The position numbers and the translations under genes are program-made. The notes beneath the pieces were generated by a model. That model had not been told where the DNA came from, searched no databases, and worked only from the letters and a program-made list of their open reading frames with translations. Positions 1,326 to 54,980 of a stretch of 64,000 bases of DNA are shown here, piece after piece. This stretch comes from Escherichia coli (GTDB lineage Bacteria > Pseudomonadota > Gammaproteobacteria > Enterobacterales > Enterobacteriaceae). The first letter of the stretch is position 1. Every line of letters begins with the position of its first letter. Location of the stretch: NCBI RefSeq assembly GCF_003334355.1, contig NZ_QOWP01000017.1, one strand, 5' to 3'.

Positions 1326-1412
1326 TTGTAGGCAGGATAAGGCGTTTACGCCGCATCCGGCATTTGAGCAGGATGCCTGATGCGACGCTGATAGCGTCTT
1401 ATCAGGCCTACA
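1326..1412. repeat. REP/BIME pair (two inverted REP palindromes) in the cpxA-yiiM gap
   Basis: gtaggcaggataaggcgtttacgccgcatccggca followed by gatgcctgatgcgacgctgatagcgtcttatcaggcctac; canonical E. coli REP sequences. Confidence 0.8.
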
Positions 1413-10200: not shown

Positions 10201-10424
10201 GCCGGATGCGGCGCGAGCGCCTTATCCGGCCTACGGGTCGGCAACAGTTGTAGGCCTGATAAGACGCGACAGCGTCGCATCAGGCATTGATTGCCGGATG
10301 CGGCACAAGTGCCTTATCCGGCCTACAGGTCGGCAATAGTTGTAGGCCTGATAAGACGCGACAGCGTCGCATCAGGCATTGATTGCCGGATGCGGCGCGA
10401 GCGCCTTATCCGGCCTACGGGTCG
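10201..10424. repeat. BIME cluster: about 2.4 tandem copies of a 92-bp unit, each holding two inverted REP palindromes
   Basis: Unit gccggatgcggcgcgagcgccttatccggcctacgggtcggcaacagttgtaggcctgataagacgcgacagcgtcgcatcaggcattgatt begins at 10201, 10293 and 10385. Confidence 0.9.
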
Positions 10425-18911: not shown

Positions 18912-21900
18912 ATGCAGGTCAGCAGAAGGCAGTTCTTTAAGATCTGCGCTGGCGGTATGGCAGGCACCACGGCAGCGGCACTGGGTTTTGCACCCAGCGT
19001 AGCACTCGCGGAAACCCGGCAGTATAAACTGCTGCGCACCCGCGAAACCCGTAATACCTGCACCTATTGTTCCGTAGGCTGTGGGCTGTTGATGTACAGC
19101 CTCGGTGACGGAGCAAAAAACGCCAAAGCATCTATCTTCCATATCGAAGGCGATCCGGATCACCCGGTCAACCGCGGTGCACTTTGTCCGAAAGGCGCTG
19201 GCCTGGTGGATTTCATCCACTCCGAAAGCCGTCTGAAGTTTCCGGAATACCGTGCGCCAGGTTCTGATAAATGGCAGCAAATCAGTTGGGAAGAGGCGTT
19301 TGATCGCATCGCCAAACTGATGAAAGAAGACCGCGATGCTAACTACATTGCGCAAAACGCCGAAGGCGTGACTGTTAACCGCTGGCTCTCCACCGGGATG
19401 CTGTGTGCTTCCGCGTCGAGTAACGAAACCGGCTATTTAACGCAAAAATTCTCCCGCGCGCTGGGTATGCTCGCGGTCGACAACCAGGCGCGTGTCTGAC
19501 ACGGACCAACGGTAGCAAGTCTTGCTCCAACATTTGGTCGCGGTGCGATGACCAACCACTGGGTCGACATCAAGAACGCCAACCTCGTCGTGGTGATGGG
19601 CGGTAACGCCGCTGAAGCTCACCCGGTCGGGTTCCGCTGGGCGATGGAAGCCAAAATTCACAACGGCGCGAAGCTGATTGTGATCGATCCTCGCTTTACG
19701 CGTACGGCGGCGGTAGCTGACTACTATGCCCCTATTCGTTCCGGTACTGACATTGCTTTCCTGTCAGGCGTATTGCTGTACCTGCTGAACAATGAAAAAT
19801 TCAACCGCGAATACACCGAAGCCTATACCAACGCCAGCCTGATCGTGCGTGAGGATTACGGCTTTGAAGATGGCCTGTTCACCGGCTACGACGCGGAAAA
19901 ACGCAAGTACGATAAATCCTCCTGGACTTATGAACTGGACGAAAACGGCTTCGCCAAACGCGATACCACGCTGCAACATCCGCGCTGCGTGTGGAACTTG
20001 CTGAAACAGCACGTTTCCCGCTACACGCCAGATGTGGTTGAAAACATCTGTGGTACGCCAAAAGACGCGTTCCTGAAAGTCTGCGAATACATCGCAGAAA
20101 CCAGTGCTCACGATAAAACTGCCTCGTTCCTGTATGCCCTCGGCTGGACGCAACACTCCGTTGGTGCGCAAAACATTCGTACGATGGCGATGATCCAGCT
20201 GCTGCTCGGCAATATGGGGATGGCAGGCGGCGGCGTTAACGCCCTGCGCGGTCACTCCAATATTCAGGGGCTGACGGACCTGGGGCTGCTGTCGCAGAGC
20301 CTGCCAGGTTACATGACGCTGCCAAGCGAGAAGCAGACCGATCTGCAAACCTACCTTACCGCCAACACGCCAAAACCGCTGCTGGAAGGCCAGGTAAACT
20401 ACTGGGGCAACTACCCGAAATTCTTCGTCTCTATGATGAAGGCCTTCTTTGGTGATAAAGCGACGGCGGAAAATAGCTGGGGCTTTGACTGGTTGCCGAA
20501 GTGGGATAAAGGCTACGACGTCCTGCAATACTTCGAGATGATGAAAGAGGGCAAGGTCAATGGCTATATCTGCCAGGGCTTTAACCCTGTTGCCTCATTC
20601 CCGAACAAAAACAAAGTGATCGGTTGTCTGTCGAAACTGAAGTTCCTCGTCACCATCGACCCACTGAACACTGAAACCTCTAACTTCTGGCAGAACCACG
20701 GTGAGCTGAACGAAGTTGACTCGTCGAAGATCCAGACCGAAGTGTTCCGTCTGCCATCGACCTGCTTCGCGGAAGAGAACGGTTCTATCGTTAACTCAGG
20801 TCGCTGGTTACAGTGGCACTGGAAAGGTGCGGACGCCCCGGGGATTGCGCTGACTGACGGCGAGATCCTCTCCGGTATCTTCCTGCGCTTGCGCAAGATG
20901 TATGCCGAACAGGGTGGCGCGAACCCGGACCAGGTGCTGAACATGACATGGAACTACGCCATTCCGCATGAGCCATCTTCAGAAGAAGTGGCGATGGAGA
21001 GCAACGGTAAGGCGCTGGCCGATATTACCGATCCGGCAACCGGTGCGGTTATCGTCAAGAAAGGCCAACAACTTAGTTCGTTCGCCCAATTGCGCGATGA
21101 CGGTACAACCTCCTGTGGCTGCTGGATTTTCGCCGGTAGCTGGACGCCGGAAGGCAACCAGATGGCACGCCGTGATAACGCCGATCCGTCTGGCCTCGGT
21201 AACACGCTGGGCTGGGCATGGGCATGGCCGCTTAACCGCCGCATTCTGTATAACCGCGCCTCCGCAGATCCGCAGGGTAACCCGTGGGATCCGAAGCGTC
21301 AGTTGCTGAAATGGGACGGCACTAAGTGGACCGGCTGGGATATTCCGGACTACAGCGCAGCGCCTCCGGGTAGCGGCGTCGGGCCGTTTATCATGCAGCA
21401 GGAAGGCATGGGGCGTCTGTTTGCCCTCGATAAGATGGCGGAAGGTCCGTTCCCGGAACACTACGAGCCGTTTGAAACGCCGCTGGGAACTAACCCGCTG
21501 CATCCAAACGTTATCTCGAACCCGGCTGCACGTATCTTTAAAGACGACGCCGAAGCATTGGGTAAAGCCGATAAGTTCCCGTATGTCGGAACCACCTATC
21601 GTCTGACCGAGCACTTCCACTACTGGACCAAACACGCGCTGTTGAACGCGATTTTGCAGCCAGAGCAGTTTGTGGAAATCGGGGAGTCGCTGGCGAATAA
21701 ACTTGGCATTGCCCAGGGCGATACCGTGAAAGTCTCCTCCAACCGTGGCTATATCAAAGCCAAAGCGGTGGTGACCAAACGTATTCGCACGCTGAAAGCG
21801 AACGGCAAAGATATCGATACCATCGGTATTCCGATTCACTGGGGCTATGAAGGCGTAGCTAAAAAAGGCTTTATTGCCAATACTTTAACGCCATTCGTTG

Positions 21901-22877: not shown

Positions 22878-23509
22878 AACGACGTGACACCATCGTGCGC
22901 TACACCGCGCCGGAACGTATCAACCACTGGATCACCGCCTTCTGCTTCATCCTGGCGGCGGTGAGCGGGCTGGGCTTTTTGTTCCCGTCCTTCAACTGGT
23001 TGATGCAAATCATGGGCACACCGCAGCTGGCGCGAATTCTGCACCCGTTTGTCGGCGTGGTTATGTTTGCCTCGTTCATCATCATGTTTTTCCGTTACTG
23101 GCATCACAACCTAATCAATCGGGATGATATCTTTTGGGCGAAGAATATTCGTAAGATCGTCGTCAACGAGGAAGTAGGTGACACCGGGCGTTATAACTTC
23201 GGTCAGAAATGCGTTTTCTGGGCGGCGATTATTTTCCTGGTTCTGCTGCTGGTGAGCGGCGTGATTATCTGGCGTCCTTATTTTGCGCCTGCTTTCTCAA
23301 TCCCGGTGATCCGATTCGCGTTAATGCTGCATTCATTTGCCGCAGTGGCGTTAATTGTGGTTATCATGGTGCATATCTACGCCGCCCTTTGGGTGAAAGG
23401 CACGATTACCGCCATGGTGGAAGGATGGGTTACCAGCGCCTGGGCGAAGAAACATCACCCGCGCTGGTACCGTGAGGTCCGCAAGACAACGGAAAAGAAA
23501 GCTGAATGA
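22874..23509 (+). CDS. fdoI: Formate dehydrogenase-O cytochrome b556 subunit
   Basis: 211-aa ORF, 4-TM hydrophobic protein; start overlaps the fdoH stop. Confidence 0.95.
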
Positions 23510-24435: not shown

Positions 24436-24616
24436 TCTCTGACGTTTTCCGGGTGGCGCAGGTCGCCCGGATTACAGCTCATAGGGTGTGACGACACCAT
24501 CTCTCGTATTCCGCGTTACCACCTCAAGCTATGCCGCCAGTGCCGGTTTGGCCTCAATTTACCCACCACCACATCAATAAGGTTATGGGCATGAGACTGA
24601 TGACAAGCGTAAGATT

Positions 24617-24715
24617 GCCTGATGCGCTGCGCTTATCAGGCCTACCAATAAACTGCAATACATTGAATTTATACGACTTTGTAGGCCGGATAAGGCGTTC
24701 ACGCCGCATCCGGCA
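24617..24715. repeat. REP/BIME pair downstream of fdhE
   Basis: gcctgatgcgctgcgcttatcaggcctac and inverted gtaggccggataaggcgttcacgccgcatccggca. Confidence 0.8.
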
Positions 24716-24764
24716 TGAACAACGCGCACGTTGTCAGCAATCTGATTGACATCATTTTTTCCCA

Positions 24765-24983
24765 TTACCATTCCTCGCGCAGCTTACGCTGATATTCGAC
24801 ACCATCTTCCTCACACCCTTGCCAGATGCCAGGAACACTGGTTCTTGCTGTTTGCGATTGATTTATCAGGTATTGATCTACCGCTTCCCTTAATAGGTCC
24901 GCACGAGGAAGATTACGCTGCACCTCGAGATCATCAAGTTGCTTAATCACCTCATTCGATAAATCGAGTAAAATTCTGCCCAT
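24765..24983 (-). CDS. yiiF: Small ribbon-helix-helix (CopG/Arc-like) protein
   Basis: 72 aa [39 protein letters not shown]...; RHH signature (beta-strand then LxREAVxxYL). Confidence 0.8.
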
Positions 24984-25224
24984 ATCTATACCTGCCAGAG
25001 AGTTCATAAATATCTCGCCAATATCATTTTTGAATCTATGGAGAGAAAAGTACCCTTGCCGAATCTTTAAAGAAAGCTCATTTACGCATCATTTTTTATT
25101 TTTGCGAGGCGTTTTCCAGATATGATGTAACAGTTGCAGTTATTATAAGTTCAAGTAAAACAGCCTTGTATTAATACCAGAATAAGGGCATCTGTTTTTT
25201 ATATTCAAGAATGAAAAATTTTTG

Positions 25225-25443
25225 TCATTCCTTATGCTCCTTACACTGATCATCAACACCAACTACCTCCCCCTTTTGCCTGCCTCCCTTTGCTTTACGC
25301 ACCGGGAATTGCTGACGTTCCAGATATTGCTCTACCGCTTCGCGTAAAATTGCAGATCGTGAAACCTTACGCCAGCCCCGAAGCTTGTTCAGCCGTTTAA
25401 TTGCCTCTTCTGATAAATGAAGAAAAACCGTATTCATCGCCAT
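25225..25443 (-). CDS. yiiE: Small ribbon-helix-helix (CopG/Arc-like) protein, paralog of yiiF
   Basis: 72 aa MAMNTVFLHLSEEAIKRLNKLRGWRKVSRSAILREAVEQYL...; same fold signature as the neighbour. Confidence 0.8.
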   Translation of the reverse strand: MAMNTVFLHLSEEAIKRLNKLRGWRKVSRSAILREAVEQYLERQQFPVRKAKGGRQKGEVVGVDDQCKEHKE

Positions 25444-25777
25444 TACCAATACCTTACATATATTACTCATTAATGTATGTGCGAAAATTACGCCGGAAAA
25501 TCATTTAAAAAAAGCGGATTTTTGCATGTTGTTTTGTTTTTGCGAGGCGTTTTCCAGAAATAATAAGAGTGTTGCAGTTGTTTCATTTATTACTCAAAAA
25601 TGGTTTAGTTATCGCCCAGGATGAATTATGGGTGCTATGAATATATTATATTCAGAGATATTTATTTGCATAATCTGAATGGTGTAGCCGAAAAACGTCA
25701 GCATCCTAACAGCACCAGGATTTAAGGTGAAATTAATCTTTCATCACAGACCGGTCAGTACTGCCACCAACCGGTCT

Positions 25778-44286: not shown

Positions 44287-44452
44287 TGTTTAATCCTTTT
44301 GGTTTAAACCAGATGAAGCATCTTACGCTTACGCCAAAAAAGAAAGCAATTAACGGTGTATGACTTTGCAGATAATTGTGACAAAGCTCTCTATTGACGT
44401 AATCACAGACTTATAAGGGAGATACTCGCATTGGTGTGCGCTCACGACAGGT

Positions 44453-44485
44453 AAAAAAAAACCTGCCAGCGATGGCAGGTTTTTT
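44453..44485 (-). terminator. Rho-independent terminator of typA (symmetrical A/T tracts, possibly bidirectional)
   Basis: aaaaaaaaa cctgccagcgatggcagg tttttt. Confidence 0.7.
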
Positions 44486-44502
44486 ATAACTAAAAAACGA
44501 AA

Positions 44503-46326
44503 TTAATCGTCTTTCGGTGCGCGGTTAGCGCGACGACGATCGTTTTCCGTCAGGTGACGTTTACGAATACGGATAGAGGTTGGAGTCACTTCTACCAGTT
44601 CGTCATCATCGATGAACTCCAGAGCTTGTTCCAGAGTCATGCGGATAGGCGGAACCAGAACAACGGCTTCGTCAGTACCGGAAGCACGCATGTTGGTCAG
44701 TTTCTTACCGGTCAGGCAGTTTACCGTCAGGTCGTTAGAGCGGCTATGAATACCGATAATCTGACCTTCGTAAACTTCTGCACCGTGACCGAGGAACAGC
44801 TTACCGCGATCCTGCAGACCGAACAGCGCGAACGCGACCGCTTTACCCTGACCGTTAGAGATCAGTACGCCGTTCTGACGCTGGCCCACTTCACCCGGAC
44901 GTACGTCGTCGTAGTGGCTGAAGGTGGAGTACAGCAGACCAGTACCGGAAGTCATGGTCATGAACTCAGAACGGAAGCCAATCAGACCACGGCTTGGGAT
45001 CACGTAGTCGAGACGTACGCGGCCTTTACCGTCTGGATTCATGTTTTTCAGGTCGCCTTTACGTTCGCCCAGCGCCTGCATCACAGAACCCTGATGCTGT
45101 TCTTCAACGTCCAGCGTCACGTTTTCATACGGCTCTTGTTTACGACCGTCGATTTCACGGAAGATTACTTTCGGACGGGATACCGCCAGTTCGAAACCTT
45201 CACGACGCATGTTTTCGATCAGAACAGACAGGTGCAGTTCGCCACGACCAGAAACGCGGAACGCATCGGCGTCTTCGGTTTCTTCTACGCGCAGCGCAAC
45301 GTTGTGTACCAGTTCTTTGTTCAGACGATCCAGGATCTGACGAGACGTTACGAACTTACCTTCTTTACCGCAGAACGGCGAGGTGTTAACGCAGAAGAAC
45401 ATAGAAACGGTCGGCTCATCAACGGAGAGTGCCGGCAGCGCTTCAACGTTTTGCGTGTCGCAAACGGTGTCAGAAATGTTCAGTTCGCCCAGGCCCGTGA
45501 TCGCCACGATATCGCCAGCTTCCGCCAGGTCGGTTTCGATACGTTCCAGACCGAGGTGGCCCAGCACTTTACCGACTTTCGCGTTGCGGGTTTTGCCTTC
45601 GCTATCGATGATAGTGACCTGCTGGTTCGGCTTCACTTTACCGCGCTTGATGCGGCCAATGCCGATAACGCCAACATAGCTGTTGTAATCGAGCTGAGAA
45701 ATCTGCATCTGGAACGGACCGTCAAGGTCAACGTCCGGCGCAGGAACGTGGTCAACAATCGCCTGGTACAGCGGGGTCATGTCTTCCGCCATATCTTCGT
45801 GGTCCAGACCCGCGATACCGTTCAGCGCAGAAGCGTAAACGATCGGGAAGTCCAGCTGCTCGTCGGTCGCGTCGAGGTTAACGAACAGATCGAATACCTG
45901 ATCCACAACCCAATCAGGACGCGCGCCAGGGCGGTCAACTTTGTTGATAACAACAATCGGCTTCAGGCCGTAAGCAAACGCTTTTTTGGTTACGAAGCGC
46001 GTTTGCGGCATCGGGCCGTCAAATGCGTCAACCACCAGCAGCACTGAGTCTACCATGGACATTACACGTTCAACTTCACCACCGAAGTCGGCGTGCCCCG
46101 GGGTATCAACGATGTTGATACGGTAATCATTCCATTTGATAGCGGTGTTTTTCGCGAGGATGGTAATCCCACGCTCTTTCTCCAAATCGTTGGAGTCCAT
46201 CACGCGCTCTTGGGTTTCGGCACGAGAGTCGAACGTACCGGATTGTTGGAGCAGCTTGTCTACCAGGGTGGTTTTACCATGGTCTACGTGCGCGATGATG
46301 GCGATATTACGCAATTTTTCGATCAC
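44503..46326 (-). CDS. typA: Ribosome-associated translational GTPase TypA/BipA
   Basis: 607 aa; G-motifs [18 protein letters not shown]. Confidence 0.95.
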
Positions 46327-46469
46327 AACTTTGCCTCAGGCATTAGAAATAGCGCGTTATTGTACACGGATTAATCGCACTACAAAACAGGATCACAAAC
46401 ATCCTCCGCAAACAAGTATTGCAGAGTCCCTTTGTGATCGCTTTCACGGAGCATAAAAAGGGTTATCCA

Positions 46470-46620
46470 AAGGTCATTGCACCAACATGGTGCTTAATGT
46501 TTCCATTGAAGCACTATATTGGTGCAACATTCACATCGTGGTGCAGCCCTTTTGCACGATGGTGCGCATGATAACGCCTTTTAGGGGCAATTTAAAAGTT
46601 GGCACAGATTTCGCTTTATC
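46470..46620 (+). promoter_or_regulatory. glnA control region: NtrC binding sites and sigma-54 promoter glnAp2
   Basis: NtrC-type dyads ttgcaccaacatggtgct, ttggtgcaacattcacatcgtggtgcagcc, ttgcacgatggtgcgcat; sigma-54 -24/-12 element tggcacagatttcgct at 46600..46615. Confidence 0.85.
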
Positions 46621-51099: not shown

Positions 51100-51203
51100 T
51101 GCCGGATGCGGAGAAAGTCGTAGGCCTGATAAGACGCGACCAGCGCCGCATCAGGCACCATGCTCAGATGCCTGATGCGGCGTAAACGCCTTATCCGGCC
51201 TAC
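51100..51203. repeat. REP/BIME cluster (three REP palindromes) between yshB and hemN
   Basis: gccggatgcggagaaagtcgtaggcctgataagacgcgaccagcgccgcatcaggca...gatgcctgatgcggcgtaaacgccttatccggcctac. Confidence 0.8.
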
Positions 51204-53386: not shown

Positions 53387-53452
53387 AATGGTTCGTCTTT
53401 TAGCCGTTTTATTCAGTATAGATTTGCGGCGGAATCTAACAGAAAGCAAGCA

Positions 53453-53697
53453 AAGAAAAAAGGCGACAGATTACTCTGTCGCCTTTTTTCCTGACTCATA
53501 ACCCTTAACGGGTCTTACAATCCTTGCAGGCCGCCAACACACCCTGTTTTTCCTTTAGCCGGAACAATCCGTGTTGATTCCATTTCCGTTTAATTACGTC
53601 TCCGGACGTTTGTCTTCCTGACAATCCTCTGTCTTCGCCTCCTGGCGCTCCTGACCCTCATCCTGAGTCATTGTTCCTGTTAGCGTCCTCGCTCTAT
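53453..53697 (-). ncRNA. csrC: CsrC small RNA (CsrA-sequestering)
   Basis: Minus-strand sequence begins atagagcgaggacgctaacaggaacaatgactcaggatgagggtcaggagcgccaggaggcgaagacagaggattgtcaggaagac..., has multiple GGA motifs and ends in terminator ggcgacagagtaatctgtcgcc plus U-run; matches CsrC as I recall it. Confidence 0.9.
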
Positions 53698-54725: not shown

Positions 54726-54834
54726 TAAAAAACGCCCCAGTCATTACTGACTGGGGCGGCTAAAATATTCAGCCAAATCCGATTACGTGAAGTAAAAGGT
54801 CTGAAAGATAGAACATCTTACCTCTGTACCCTAC
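54726..54834 (-). ncRNA. spf: Spot 42 small RNA
   Basis: Minus strand reads gtagggtacagaggtaagatgttctatctttcagaccttttacttcacgtaatcggatttggctgaatattttagccgccccagtcagtaatgactggggcgtttttta, the 109-nt Spot 42 sequence as I recall it, including its terminator. Confidence 0.92.
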
Positions 54835-54980
54835 GCGACTAACTTTACTCTTTTTTGTTCAGTTCAGAAAGCACTTTTTGTAATTTTTTTTCAGTTGTTG
54901 CATAGGAATTTCTAATAGCCATCACAAAACGTGACAGCTTATGTTGCTTACTTACGAAAAAAGGCATGTTCAGGCGAATC

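Follow-up and report, generated by a model that had tools for sequence, protein, structure and literature searches.

The question raised by this locus is why two neighbouring Escherichia coli genes, yiiE and yiiF, which code for proteins of the ribbon-helix-helix (RHH) type, are each preceded by the same short piece of non-coding DNA. Both genes lie in a stretch of 64,000 nucleotides (nt), hereafter called the window, taken from contig NZ_QOWP01000017.1 (NCBI RefSeq assembly GCF_003334355.1) and consisting of E. coli K-12-type DNA over fdoGHI-fdhE, yiiF, yiiE and fabY. An earlier note on this DNA, made from its letters alone, described a 21-bp motif upstream of each gene and proposed that a gene had been duplicated together with its own operator or promoter. 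In the present work we propose, with a probability of roughly 0.8, that the repeated element is a CRP-S site, i.e. a site of cAMP-CRP acting together with Sxy (TfoX), and that it belongs to a Sxy- and CRP-dependent promoter standing before each of two genes for orphan VapB antitoxins.

The repeated box and the CRP-S motif

The 21-mer ttttgcgaggcgttttccaga occurs exactly twice in the window, at 25100-25120 and 25538-25558 on the plus strand, which agrees with the earlier note, and no further match was found in the 64 kb with up to three mismatches allowed (0 expected from shuffled sequences). The exact repeat extends to 22 nt, reading TCTGGAAAACGCCTCGCAAAAA on the minus strand. The predicted CRP-S site upstream of yiiE occupies 25538..25559 (minus strand, tTCTGGAAAACGCCTCGCAAAA) and the one upstream of yiiF, with the same 22-mer, 25100..25121 (minus strand). 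On the plus strand the box reads TTT-TGCGA-GGCGTT-TTCCA-GA, with TGCGA-GGCGTT-TTCCA as its core, and the two boxes are 438 bp apart, each ahead of one of the tandem paralogs.

When the two modules are aligned, as had been suggested in the earlier note, the box is identical at 22/22 positions, while identity amounts to 45% in the upstream flank, 53% between the box and the ATG and 58% in the coding DNA. At that divergence a perfect 22-nt run has a chance of about 4e-4, and because it is so improbable amid flanks of 45-58% identity, the block is, judging by the alignment, under selection. A near-exact box is present in 5,414 of the 5,426 complete E. coli genomes, with a median of two and a maximum of four places per genome, so it is not a generic repeat. 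Among its alleles only spacer positions differ, the TGGA and CTCGCAAA blocks being invariant, and in an alignment of nine yiiE/yiiF-type modules, which takes in modules linked to PIN toxin genes from two other genera, T-TGGA, G-CTCGCAAA and GTAnTTT are the blocks without variation. A coding or RNA element was considered and rejected, as the frame of the short open reading frames (ORFs) that run across the box changes from locus to locus and no Rfam family overlaps it.

A second repeated sequence, the 9-mer AACTGCAAC, lies 12 nt upstream of each predicted CRP-S site, at 25571..25579 for yiiE and at 25133..25141 for yiiF (both on the minus strand). The earlier note had spoken of an identical 12-nt spacer between this gttgcagtt and the motif; the 9-mer and the length of the spacer were recovered, its sequence being different in the two modules. 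The 9-mer is kept as AA(C/T)TG(C/T)AAC in the Escherichia modules and is missing from those of Enterobacter and Superficieibacter.

The idea of a Sxy-dependent CRP site was prompted by the TCGCA half-site followed by AAA in the box. The CRP-S motif that Sinha et al. 2009 gave for E. coli, in the account of Sondberg et al. 2019 (PMC6728893), is the asymmetric T4G5C6G7A8-N6-T15T16C17C18A19, and RegulonDB v12 describes it in the same terms; such sites are asymmetric and of low affinity. Both yii boxes match this consensus exactly, and they are the only two matches of the pattern TGCGAN6TTCCA in the window, against 0.25 expected. According to Cameron and Redfield (PMC1635313), enterobacterial CRP-S half-sites without C6 carry G6 and never T6, a rule that is followed by both halves of the yii box, TGCGA (C6) and TGGAA (G6).

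The box also resembles the individual CRP-S sites of sxy (tfoX), ppdD and ybaV (comEA), the latter two being predicted sites, for which the MG1655 promoters were used. All of these are 22-bp asymmetric sites in which one half is TGCGA and the other TTCC(A/G), and the bases beside TGCGA, TGCGAGGC, are common to them and to the yii box. The sxy site, TTCGGAAAGAGCCTCGCAAAT, shares 17/22 positions with the yii box and 18/22 with the copy of the box found before a RelE-like toxin gene with a NadS antitoxin gene (see below), in the same orientation, with the TCGCA half proximal to the gene. The ppdD site, TTTGCGAGGCGTTACGAA, has a 13-nt identical run in common with the yii box, and the ybaV site, TCCTGAAGCCGCCTCGCAAAAA, is identical to it at 17/21 positions, again with a 13-nt run. 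The yii boxes differ from these three in preceding orphan antitoxin genes rather than DNA-uptake genes and in being present in two copies at tandem paralogs. In the MG1655 regions upstream of higB and hicA, TTCTGGAAT half-sites were found. The higB region (L057, 4601-4622) carries a near-symmetric TTCTGGAATCGCGCTTCCATAA element and the hicA region (L054) carries TTCTGGAATCTTCCTTCCTGA, each including the TGGAA half-site seen in the yii box; these half-sites are consistent with the reported Sxy responsiveness of both genes.

Like the class I CRP-N promoters of lac and malT, the yii promoters would combine a CRP-type site of 22 bp with a weak -35 element downstream of it. CRP-N sites consist of TGTGA and TCACA halves, compared with TGCGA and TTCCA in the yii box, and low CRP affinity and a requirement for Sxy are therefore predicted for the latter. 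At the sxy promoter, a site with TGCGA in both halves is reported to be active independently of Sxy. The GTAnTTT block lies exactly 51 nt after TCGCA in 9/9 yiiE/yiiF-type modules, those of the two other genera included. It was used to place a predicted -10 element of yiiE (TAATTT, 25485..25490, minus strand) and, with the same spacing, one of yiiF (TACTTT, 25047..25052, minus strand). If GTAnTTT is taken as the -10, the box would span -60 to -81 and the CRP-S site would tentatively be centred near -70.5, a predicted class I position, of the kind expected for CRP-S promoters (PMC1635313). The predicted starts would lie near 25478 for yiiE and near 25040 for yiiF. The -35 region of both yii promoters is poor, and a scan of the coding strand upstream of yiiE and yiiF with the sigma-70 consensus returned no promoter. 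A poor -35 is usual in activator-dependent promoters.

With this geometry, high cAMP and a build-up of Sxy would lead to binding of a cAMP-CRP-Sxy complex at the box, about 70.5 bp upstream of the predicted start, where it would recruit RNA polymerase in the class I manner, and yiiE and yiiF would be switched on together with the DNA-uptake (competence) regulon. Absent that signal, the AT-rich yiiE/yiiF locus would be nearly silent. Any autorepression by YiiE or YiiF is conjectural as well. The only candidate for an RHH operator, weak and speculative, is an imperfect palindrome in the yiiE leader (25456..25480), ACATACATTA-ATGAG-TAATATATGT, in which 9/10 positions are complementary; across three alleles 13-30 of 300 shuffles do equally well, and no equivalent palindrome was found in the K-12 yiiF leader.

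Other occurrences of the box and alternative explanations

An exact-pattern scan with the 20-mer TCTGGAAARCGYCTCGCAAA over one genome per species gave 35 loci, about two being expected by chance (an estimate assuming equal base frequencies). Two of them represent E. coli contamination, about ten, which fall within long ORFs in unrelated taxa, have the look of coding or chance matches, and 23 are enterobacterial, with unrelated flanks and with the box in both orientations. At 10/23 of the enterobacterial loci, toxin-antitoxin genes are located within 400 bp of the box. The families concerned are RelE-like/NadS, ParE/RelE with a helix-turn-helix (HTH) partner, RelBE, Gp49-HTH and VapBC, found at four loci across a number of enterobacterial genera; the box also adjoins alpha/beta hydrolase and lipoprotein genes. 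Between fabY and fdhE, the gene pair is RelE-like/NadS in Citrobacter and S. houtenae and a YiiF homolog with a PIN gene in Enterobacter and Superficieibacter, Phytobacter having only the hydrolase gene. An inserted ParE/RelE-HTH pair is found between ilvY and ilvA, where the box is inverted relative to the toxin gene. RelB, with or without RelE, is found between nrdG and cybC, and a Gp49-like toxin with an HTH protein between infA and clpA in one genome (L021). Several other enterobacterial loci with the box are free of toxin-antitoxin genes. Comparison with the empty nrdG-cybC site shows the RelBE genes to be a 707-bp insertion, with the box 100 nt inside its border. Among phage and plasmid records, the only full-length matches were to multi-megabase E. 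coli entries classed as plasmids; partial matches add little, two Salmonella records being the informative ones. The box stands beside genes in either orientation because a CRP-S site works independently of orientation; inverting the site at the sxy promoter had no effect, according to the account in PMC6728893.

Two further features of these loci were observed. A protein family of about 150 amino acids (aa), matching no Pfam or NCBIfam model, is encoded at L017 (-739..-289 from the box) and L035 (+312..+768), each time close to an exact CRP-S box, the two loci being different ones and belonging to Enterobacter and Lelliottia. The two proteins are 21% identical (E = 1e-8) and have an LTGLLHD motif in common, and they may represent unrecognised genes of the Sxy regulon. 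At L026, L031, L045 and L047, as well as at L019, L033, L041, L046 and L048, a divergent gene starts at a near-constant distance of 85-89 nt from the box. In Kosakonia its product is a lipoprotein of about 800 aa, and at fabY-fdhE an alpha/beta hydrolase. It may be these divergent genes that the box serves, either in addition to the toxin-antitoxin cassette on the far side or in its place.

This distribution bears directly on the proposal of the earlier note that the motif is an operator bound by YiiE and YiiF themselves. RHH antitoxins usually autoregulate, the motif was duplicated along with each RHH gene, and the GTTGCA-containing 9-mer presumably resembles the motif of the PutA RHH domain. 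The occurrence of the motif at unrelated sites had been named there as what would speak against the proposal, and the identical 20-mer does lie, at different loci, in several genera and in both orientations, beside operons lacking any RHH protein, namely those for RelE-like/NadS, ParE/RelE-HTH, Gp49-HTH, the hydrolase and the lipoprotein. Furthermore, it matches the CRP-S consensus and the sxy, ppdD and ybaV sites, it has neither the internal symmetry nor the tandem repeats that RHH tetramers use, and its predicted position, upstream of the core promoter, would be unusual for a repressor. A private operator is thus quite unlikely. There is an even slimmer chance that mobile toxin-antitoxin cassettes use the box for recombination or as a boundary mark, in the way of an integron attC site. 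It does travel with inserted cassettes, as the RelBE insertion at nrdG-cybC shows, and different cassettes lie downstream of the same box at fabY-fdhE and infA-clpA. Against this, the box lies inside that insertion and not at its border, neither a second end nor an inverted partner turned up, some loci with the box (L045, L017, L020 and L032) have no cassette at all, and near-identical sequences stand at the non-mobile chromosomal promoters of sxy, ppdD and ybaV. An attC-like site, which would call for paired inverted core sites at the cassette borders, was rejected since these were not observed.

That the identity of the two boxes is a neutral, functionless relic of recent duplication or gene conversion would be in keeping with the two modules being paralogs, yet the surrounding non-coding DNA is only 45-53% identical around a run with the low chance given above, and the box is conserved in nearly all E. 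coli genomes and in other genera too, making such a relic very improbable. The probability of a sigma-54 (-24/-12) promoter is close to nil. The TGG-N10-GC pattern does fit TGGAAAACGCCTCGCA, with exact GG-N10-GC spacing and with GG and GC kept while the spacer varies among alleles. Nevertheless, with a weight matrix built from the 135 chromatin immunoprecipitation sequencing (ChIP-seq) sites of Bonocora et al., the box scores 4.85 bits, which is below all bound sites (minimum 6.8) and is equalled or exceeded at 241 window positions. In addition, yiiE and yiiF are listed neither in the sigma-54 ChIP-seq tables and supplements of Bonocora et al. that were examined nor in the RpoN genomic SELEX (gSELEX) list, and the box stands in both orientations relative to neighbouring genes. 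A sigma-54 promoter was rejected on the basis of the score and the absence from these lists. The matrix also picked out, as a separate observation, a sigma-54-like sequence CCGGCGTAATTTTCGCA at 25480-25496 (minus strand), which scores 12.96 bits, inside the ChIP-bound range. It precedes the start codon of yiiE by about 40 nt, overlaps the predicted -10, is not conserved in yiiF and is missing from the published sigma-54 lists.

Several points weigh against the CRP-S assignment, which is preferred here to the explanations above. No open literature linking yiiE or yiiF to Sxy or CRP was found, the Sxy microarray of Sinha et al. 2009, which may list both genes, being beyond the reach of that search. 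Searching by gene name retrieved incidental mentions only (SlyA/H-NS effects, RpoS gSELEX and lists of transcription factors), and searching by sequence with 16-17-mers retrieved no paper. The published expression signals found for the two genes concern SlyA/H-NS and, through a weak gSELEX signal located some 640 bp upstream, sigma-S, and none of them concerns CRP. With 3/6 consensus matches in an AT-rich region, the predicted -10 is a weak one, which leaves the -70.5 geometry tentative, and at the other loci the distance from the box to the start codon ranges from 63 to 150 nt with no single fixed geometry. Finally, part of the spread across genera could be due to co-transfer of the box with its cassette, not to independent selection.

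The RHH proteins, the PIN genes and the surrounding islet

The yiiE gene (25225..25443, minus strand; ORF and RefSeq) codes for a 72-aa protein of the CopG/RHH_1 type, which matches Pfam RHH_1 (PF01402) with E = 1.6e-11. The yiiF gene (24765..25007, minus strand) codes for an 80-aa RHH protein, an older annotation giving 72 aa with the start at 24983. The longer form, which is the RefSeq annotation and whose start codon and Shine-Dalgarno sequence are kept in homologs, is more likely. YiiF matches RHH_1 weakly (E = 0.007) and is homologous to YiiE at E = 3e-12, with 41% identity over 56 aa. The earlier note was thus right about the RHH kinship of the two proteins and probably not about a length of 72 aa for both. 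The comparison supports the view that yiiE and yiiF are paralogous RHH modules duplicated together with their 5' regulatory region, and to this extent the duplication proposed there stands, without the private operator.

A word-indexed protein search with YiiE gave matches in Escherichia and Shigella only, and the more distant homologs of YiiE and YiiF were obtained from the loci found with the DNA motif. At three homologous loci (L006, L031 and L047), an overlapping PIN gene is present downstream. In E. albertii, the gene for an RHH protein with 69% identity to YiiE overlaps a 124-aa PIN gene on its downstream side. Homologs from Enterobacter and Superficieibacter, at 70% identity to YiiF, are each also followed by an overlapping PIN gene, and the PIN proteins of these two genera are 80% identical to the E. 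albertii one. The E. albertii RHH protein (L006, 6001-6593) is chimeric, its N-terminal half being near-identical to YiiE and its C-terminal half to YiiF, with the intact PIN gene following, which suggests recombination between two tandem modules.

No intact PIN gene is present in the window, where only an 18-codon 3' remnant of vapC was found (24472..24528, minus strand, translation LEVVTRNTRDGVVTPYEL*). This remnant lies downstream of yiiF, is unannotated in RefSeq and was detected when the PIN proteins of E. albertii and Enterobacter were used as tblastn queries (E = 8e-5, with 22-23 aa aligned at 59-61% identity). Elsewhere in E. coli, in the lineage of L009-L011, an N-terminal PIN remnant comes after a yiiE variant. 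The C-terminus of YiiF is conserved in the PIN-linked homologs, and that of K-12 YiiE differs. As judged from these comparisons, YiiF is a full-length VapB-type antitoxin, its shared C-terminal tail being presumed to be the toxin-binding part, and YiiE is a VapB-type N-terminal domain with a diverged C-terminus. Both resemble the RHH antitoxins of VapBC systems (an RHH or AbrB antitoxin with a PIN toxin) in combining an RHH N-terminal domain and a C-terminal tail and in having homologs with an overlapping PIN gene. They differ from VapBC and from other solo antitoxins in that both PIN genes are missing in K-12 and that the presumed toxin-binding part of YiiE has been replaced.

It is therefore by their homologs that YiiE and YiiF are placed among vapBC (RHH-PIN) cassettes, of which they are, on this evidence, now orphans. 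A tandem duplication of promoter, CRP-S site and antitoxin module in Escherichia and the loss of both PIN toxin genes in K-12 would account for the two orphan antitoxins. Of the two usual roles of RHH proteins named in the earlier note, autoregulator and antitoxin, the antitoxin type is borne out by the PIN-linked homologs of both, and the remark made there that no toxin-like partner is evident holds for intact genes in K-12, not for the wider locus with its PIN remnant and the overlapping PIN genes of the homologs.

Read on the minus strand, the gene order is fabY (yiiD), yiiE and yiiF, with fdhE-fdoIHG convergent. Window positions were converted to MG1655 (U00096.2) coordinates as 4,102,757 minus the window position, a mapping fixed through sigma-54 matrix matches at the published intragenic fdoI site and at glnAp2, which fell at the expected coordinates (window 23027-23043 and 46599-46615, both on the plus strand). 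The two boxes correspond to MG1655 positions of about 4,077,208 and 4,077,646. The place of vapC in other genera is occupied in the window by repeats of the repetitive extragenic palindrome/bacterial interspersed mosaic element (REP/BIME) type (24581..24720), as indicated by a median of 37 matches per genome for a query across this locus and by sub-threshold matches to the REP-derived Rfam families naRNA4 and ES036. Matches at the Rfam gathering threshold in the window are CsrC, Spot 42, ES222, STnc370, the selenocysteine insertion sequence (SECIS) element of fdoG and four REP-derived naRNA4 copies; their coordinates are 53444-53697, 54726-54844, 46408-46515 and 44450-44518 (-), 19494-19552 (+), 1331-1408 (+), and 10253-10415 and 51123-51200 (-).

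The region between fabY and fdhE is a variable islet in E. coli. Upstream of yiiE, O157:H7 has two genes, each some 300 codons long, and K-12 keeps about 22 first codons of one of them, as a pseudogene fragment (25820-25936, minus strand) corresponding to the start of a 297-aa hypothetical gene intact in O157:H7 (L002, 6658-7551). The first 22 codons of the fragment (25820-25885) are 100% identical to the O157:H7 gene, and a deletion of about 2 kb removes most of the two genes of unknown function from K-12. In ST131 (L003, 5750-7363), a gene for a DUF6708 membrane protein and a 246-aa gene, inserted on the opposite strand, separate the yiiE module from the yiiF module, and the spacer of the yiiE box has diverged to TTTGGATGCAGTCTCGCAAAAA. 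Many strains have an alpha/beta-hydrolase gene and a gene for a 103-aa RelE-like toxin with a NadS/Xre antitoxin between fabY and yiiE, with a third copy of the motif, 19/22 identical, between the hydrolase and toxin genes. In some strains, insertion sequence IS621 or IS1 is inserted in the matched locus.

Toxin-antitoxin genes and the competence regulon

Both the CRP-S type of element and the control of toxin-antitoxin operons by it are already known. The closest precedent is P1 of E. coli hicAB, a toxin-antitoxin operon described as CRP-S/Sxy-controlled (Turnbull & Gerdes 2017, as cited in PMC6957337 and PMC11951105). It is likewise a type II locus wired to CRP-Sxy and has the half-site TTCTGGAA in common with the yii box. 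It differs in that HicA and HicB are both intact, that the toxin gene comes first and that the antitoxin represses a second promoter, compared with RHH antitoxins without toxins in yiiE/yiiF. Published precedents also include higBA and chpSB, which are induced on sxy overexpression, and the toxTA operon (HI0660/HI0659) of Haemophilus influenzae, which is under CRP-S control. ToxTA is a Gp49-like toxin with an HTH partner, and a similar pair lies downstream of the exact box at the enterobacterial locus between infA and clpA. It belongs to a different family (Gp49/ParE-RelE with an Xre antitoxin) from YiiE/YiiF, and CRP-S sites in Haemophilus are palindromes. H. influenzae is no longer transformable once the toxTA antitoxin is lost.

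At least five toxin families at at least four chromosomal loci were found with the box, namely VapC/PIN, the RelE-like 103-aa protein with NadS, ParE/RelE-HTH, RelBE and Gp49-HTH. That CRP-S boxes form a portable promoter module which, throughout Enterobacteriaceae, has time and again accompanied type II toxin-antitoxin cassettes or captured them is put forward only tentatively, as a possibility rather than the likelier outcome. What may be new here is the CRP-S assignment for yiiE and yiiF, the recognition of both as orphan VapB antitoxins and the finding that near-identical boxes recur beside five toxin families in several genera. The yiiE and yiiF boxes themselves are an ordinary but informative addition to a known regulon, through which two uncharacterised K-12 genes gain a testable regulatory input, CRP-cAMP and Sxy, along with an orphan VapB identity.

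The finding adds to the published puzzle of toxin-antitoxin operons (hicAB, higBA and the Haemophilus toxTA) wired to the competence regulon, and near-identical CRP-S boxes beside several unrelated toxin-antitoxin families in different genera suggest that this link is general and not anecdotal. If the boxes do form such a portable module, toxin-antitoxin modules and orphan antitoxins would amount to a large accessory branch of the Sxy/TfoX competence regulon that has been overlooked, and the kept orphan antitoxins YiiE and YiiF might act during DNA uptake against incoming homologous toxins, as an anti-addiction function, or might regulate other genes.

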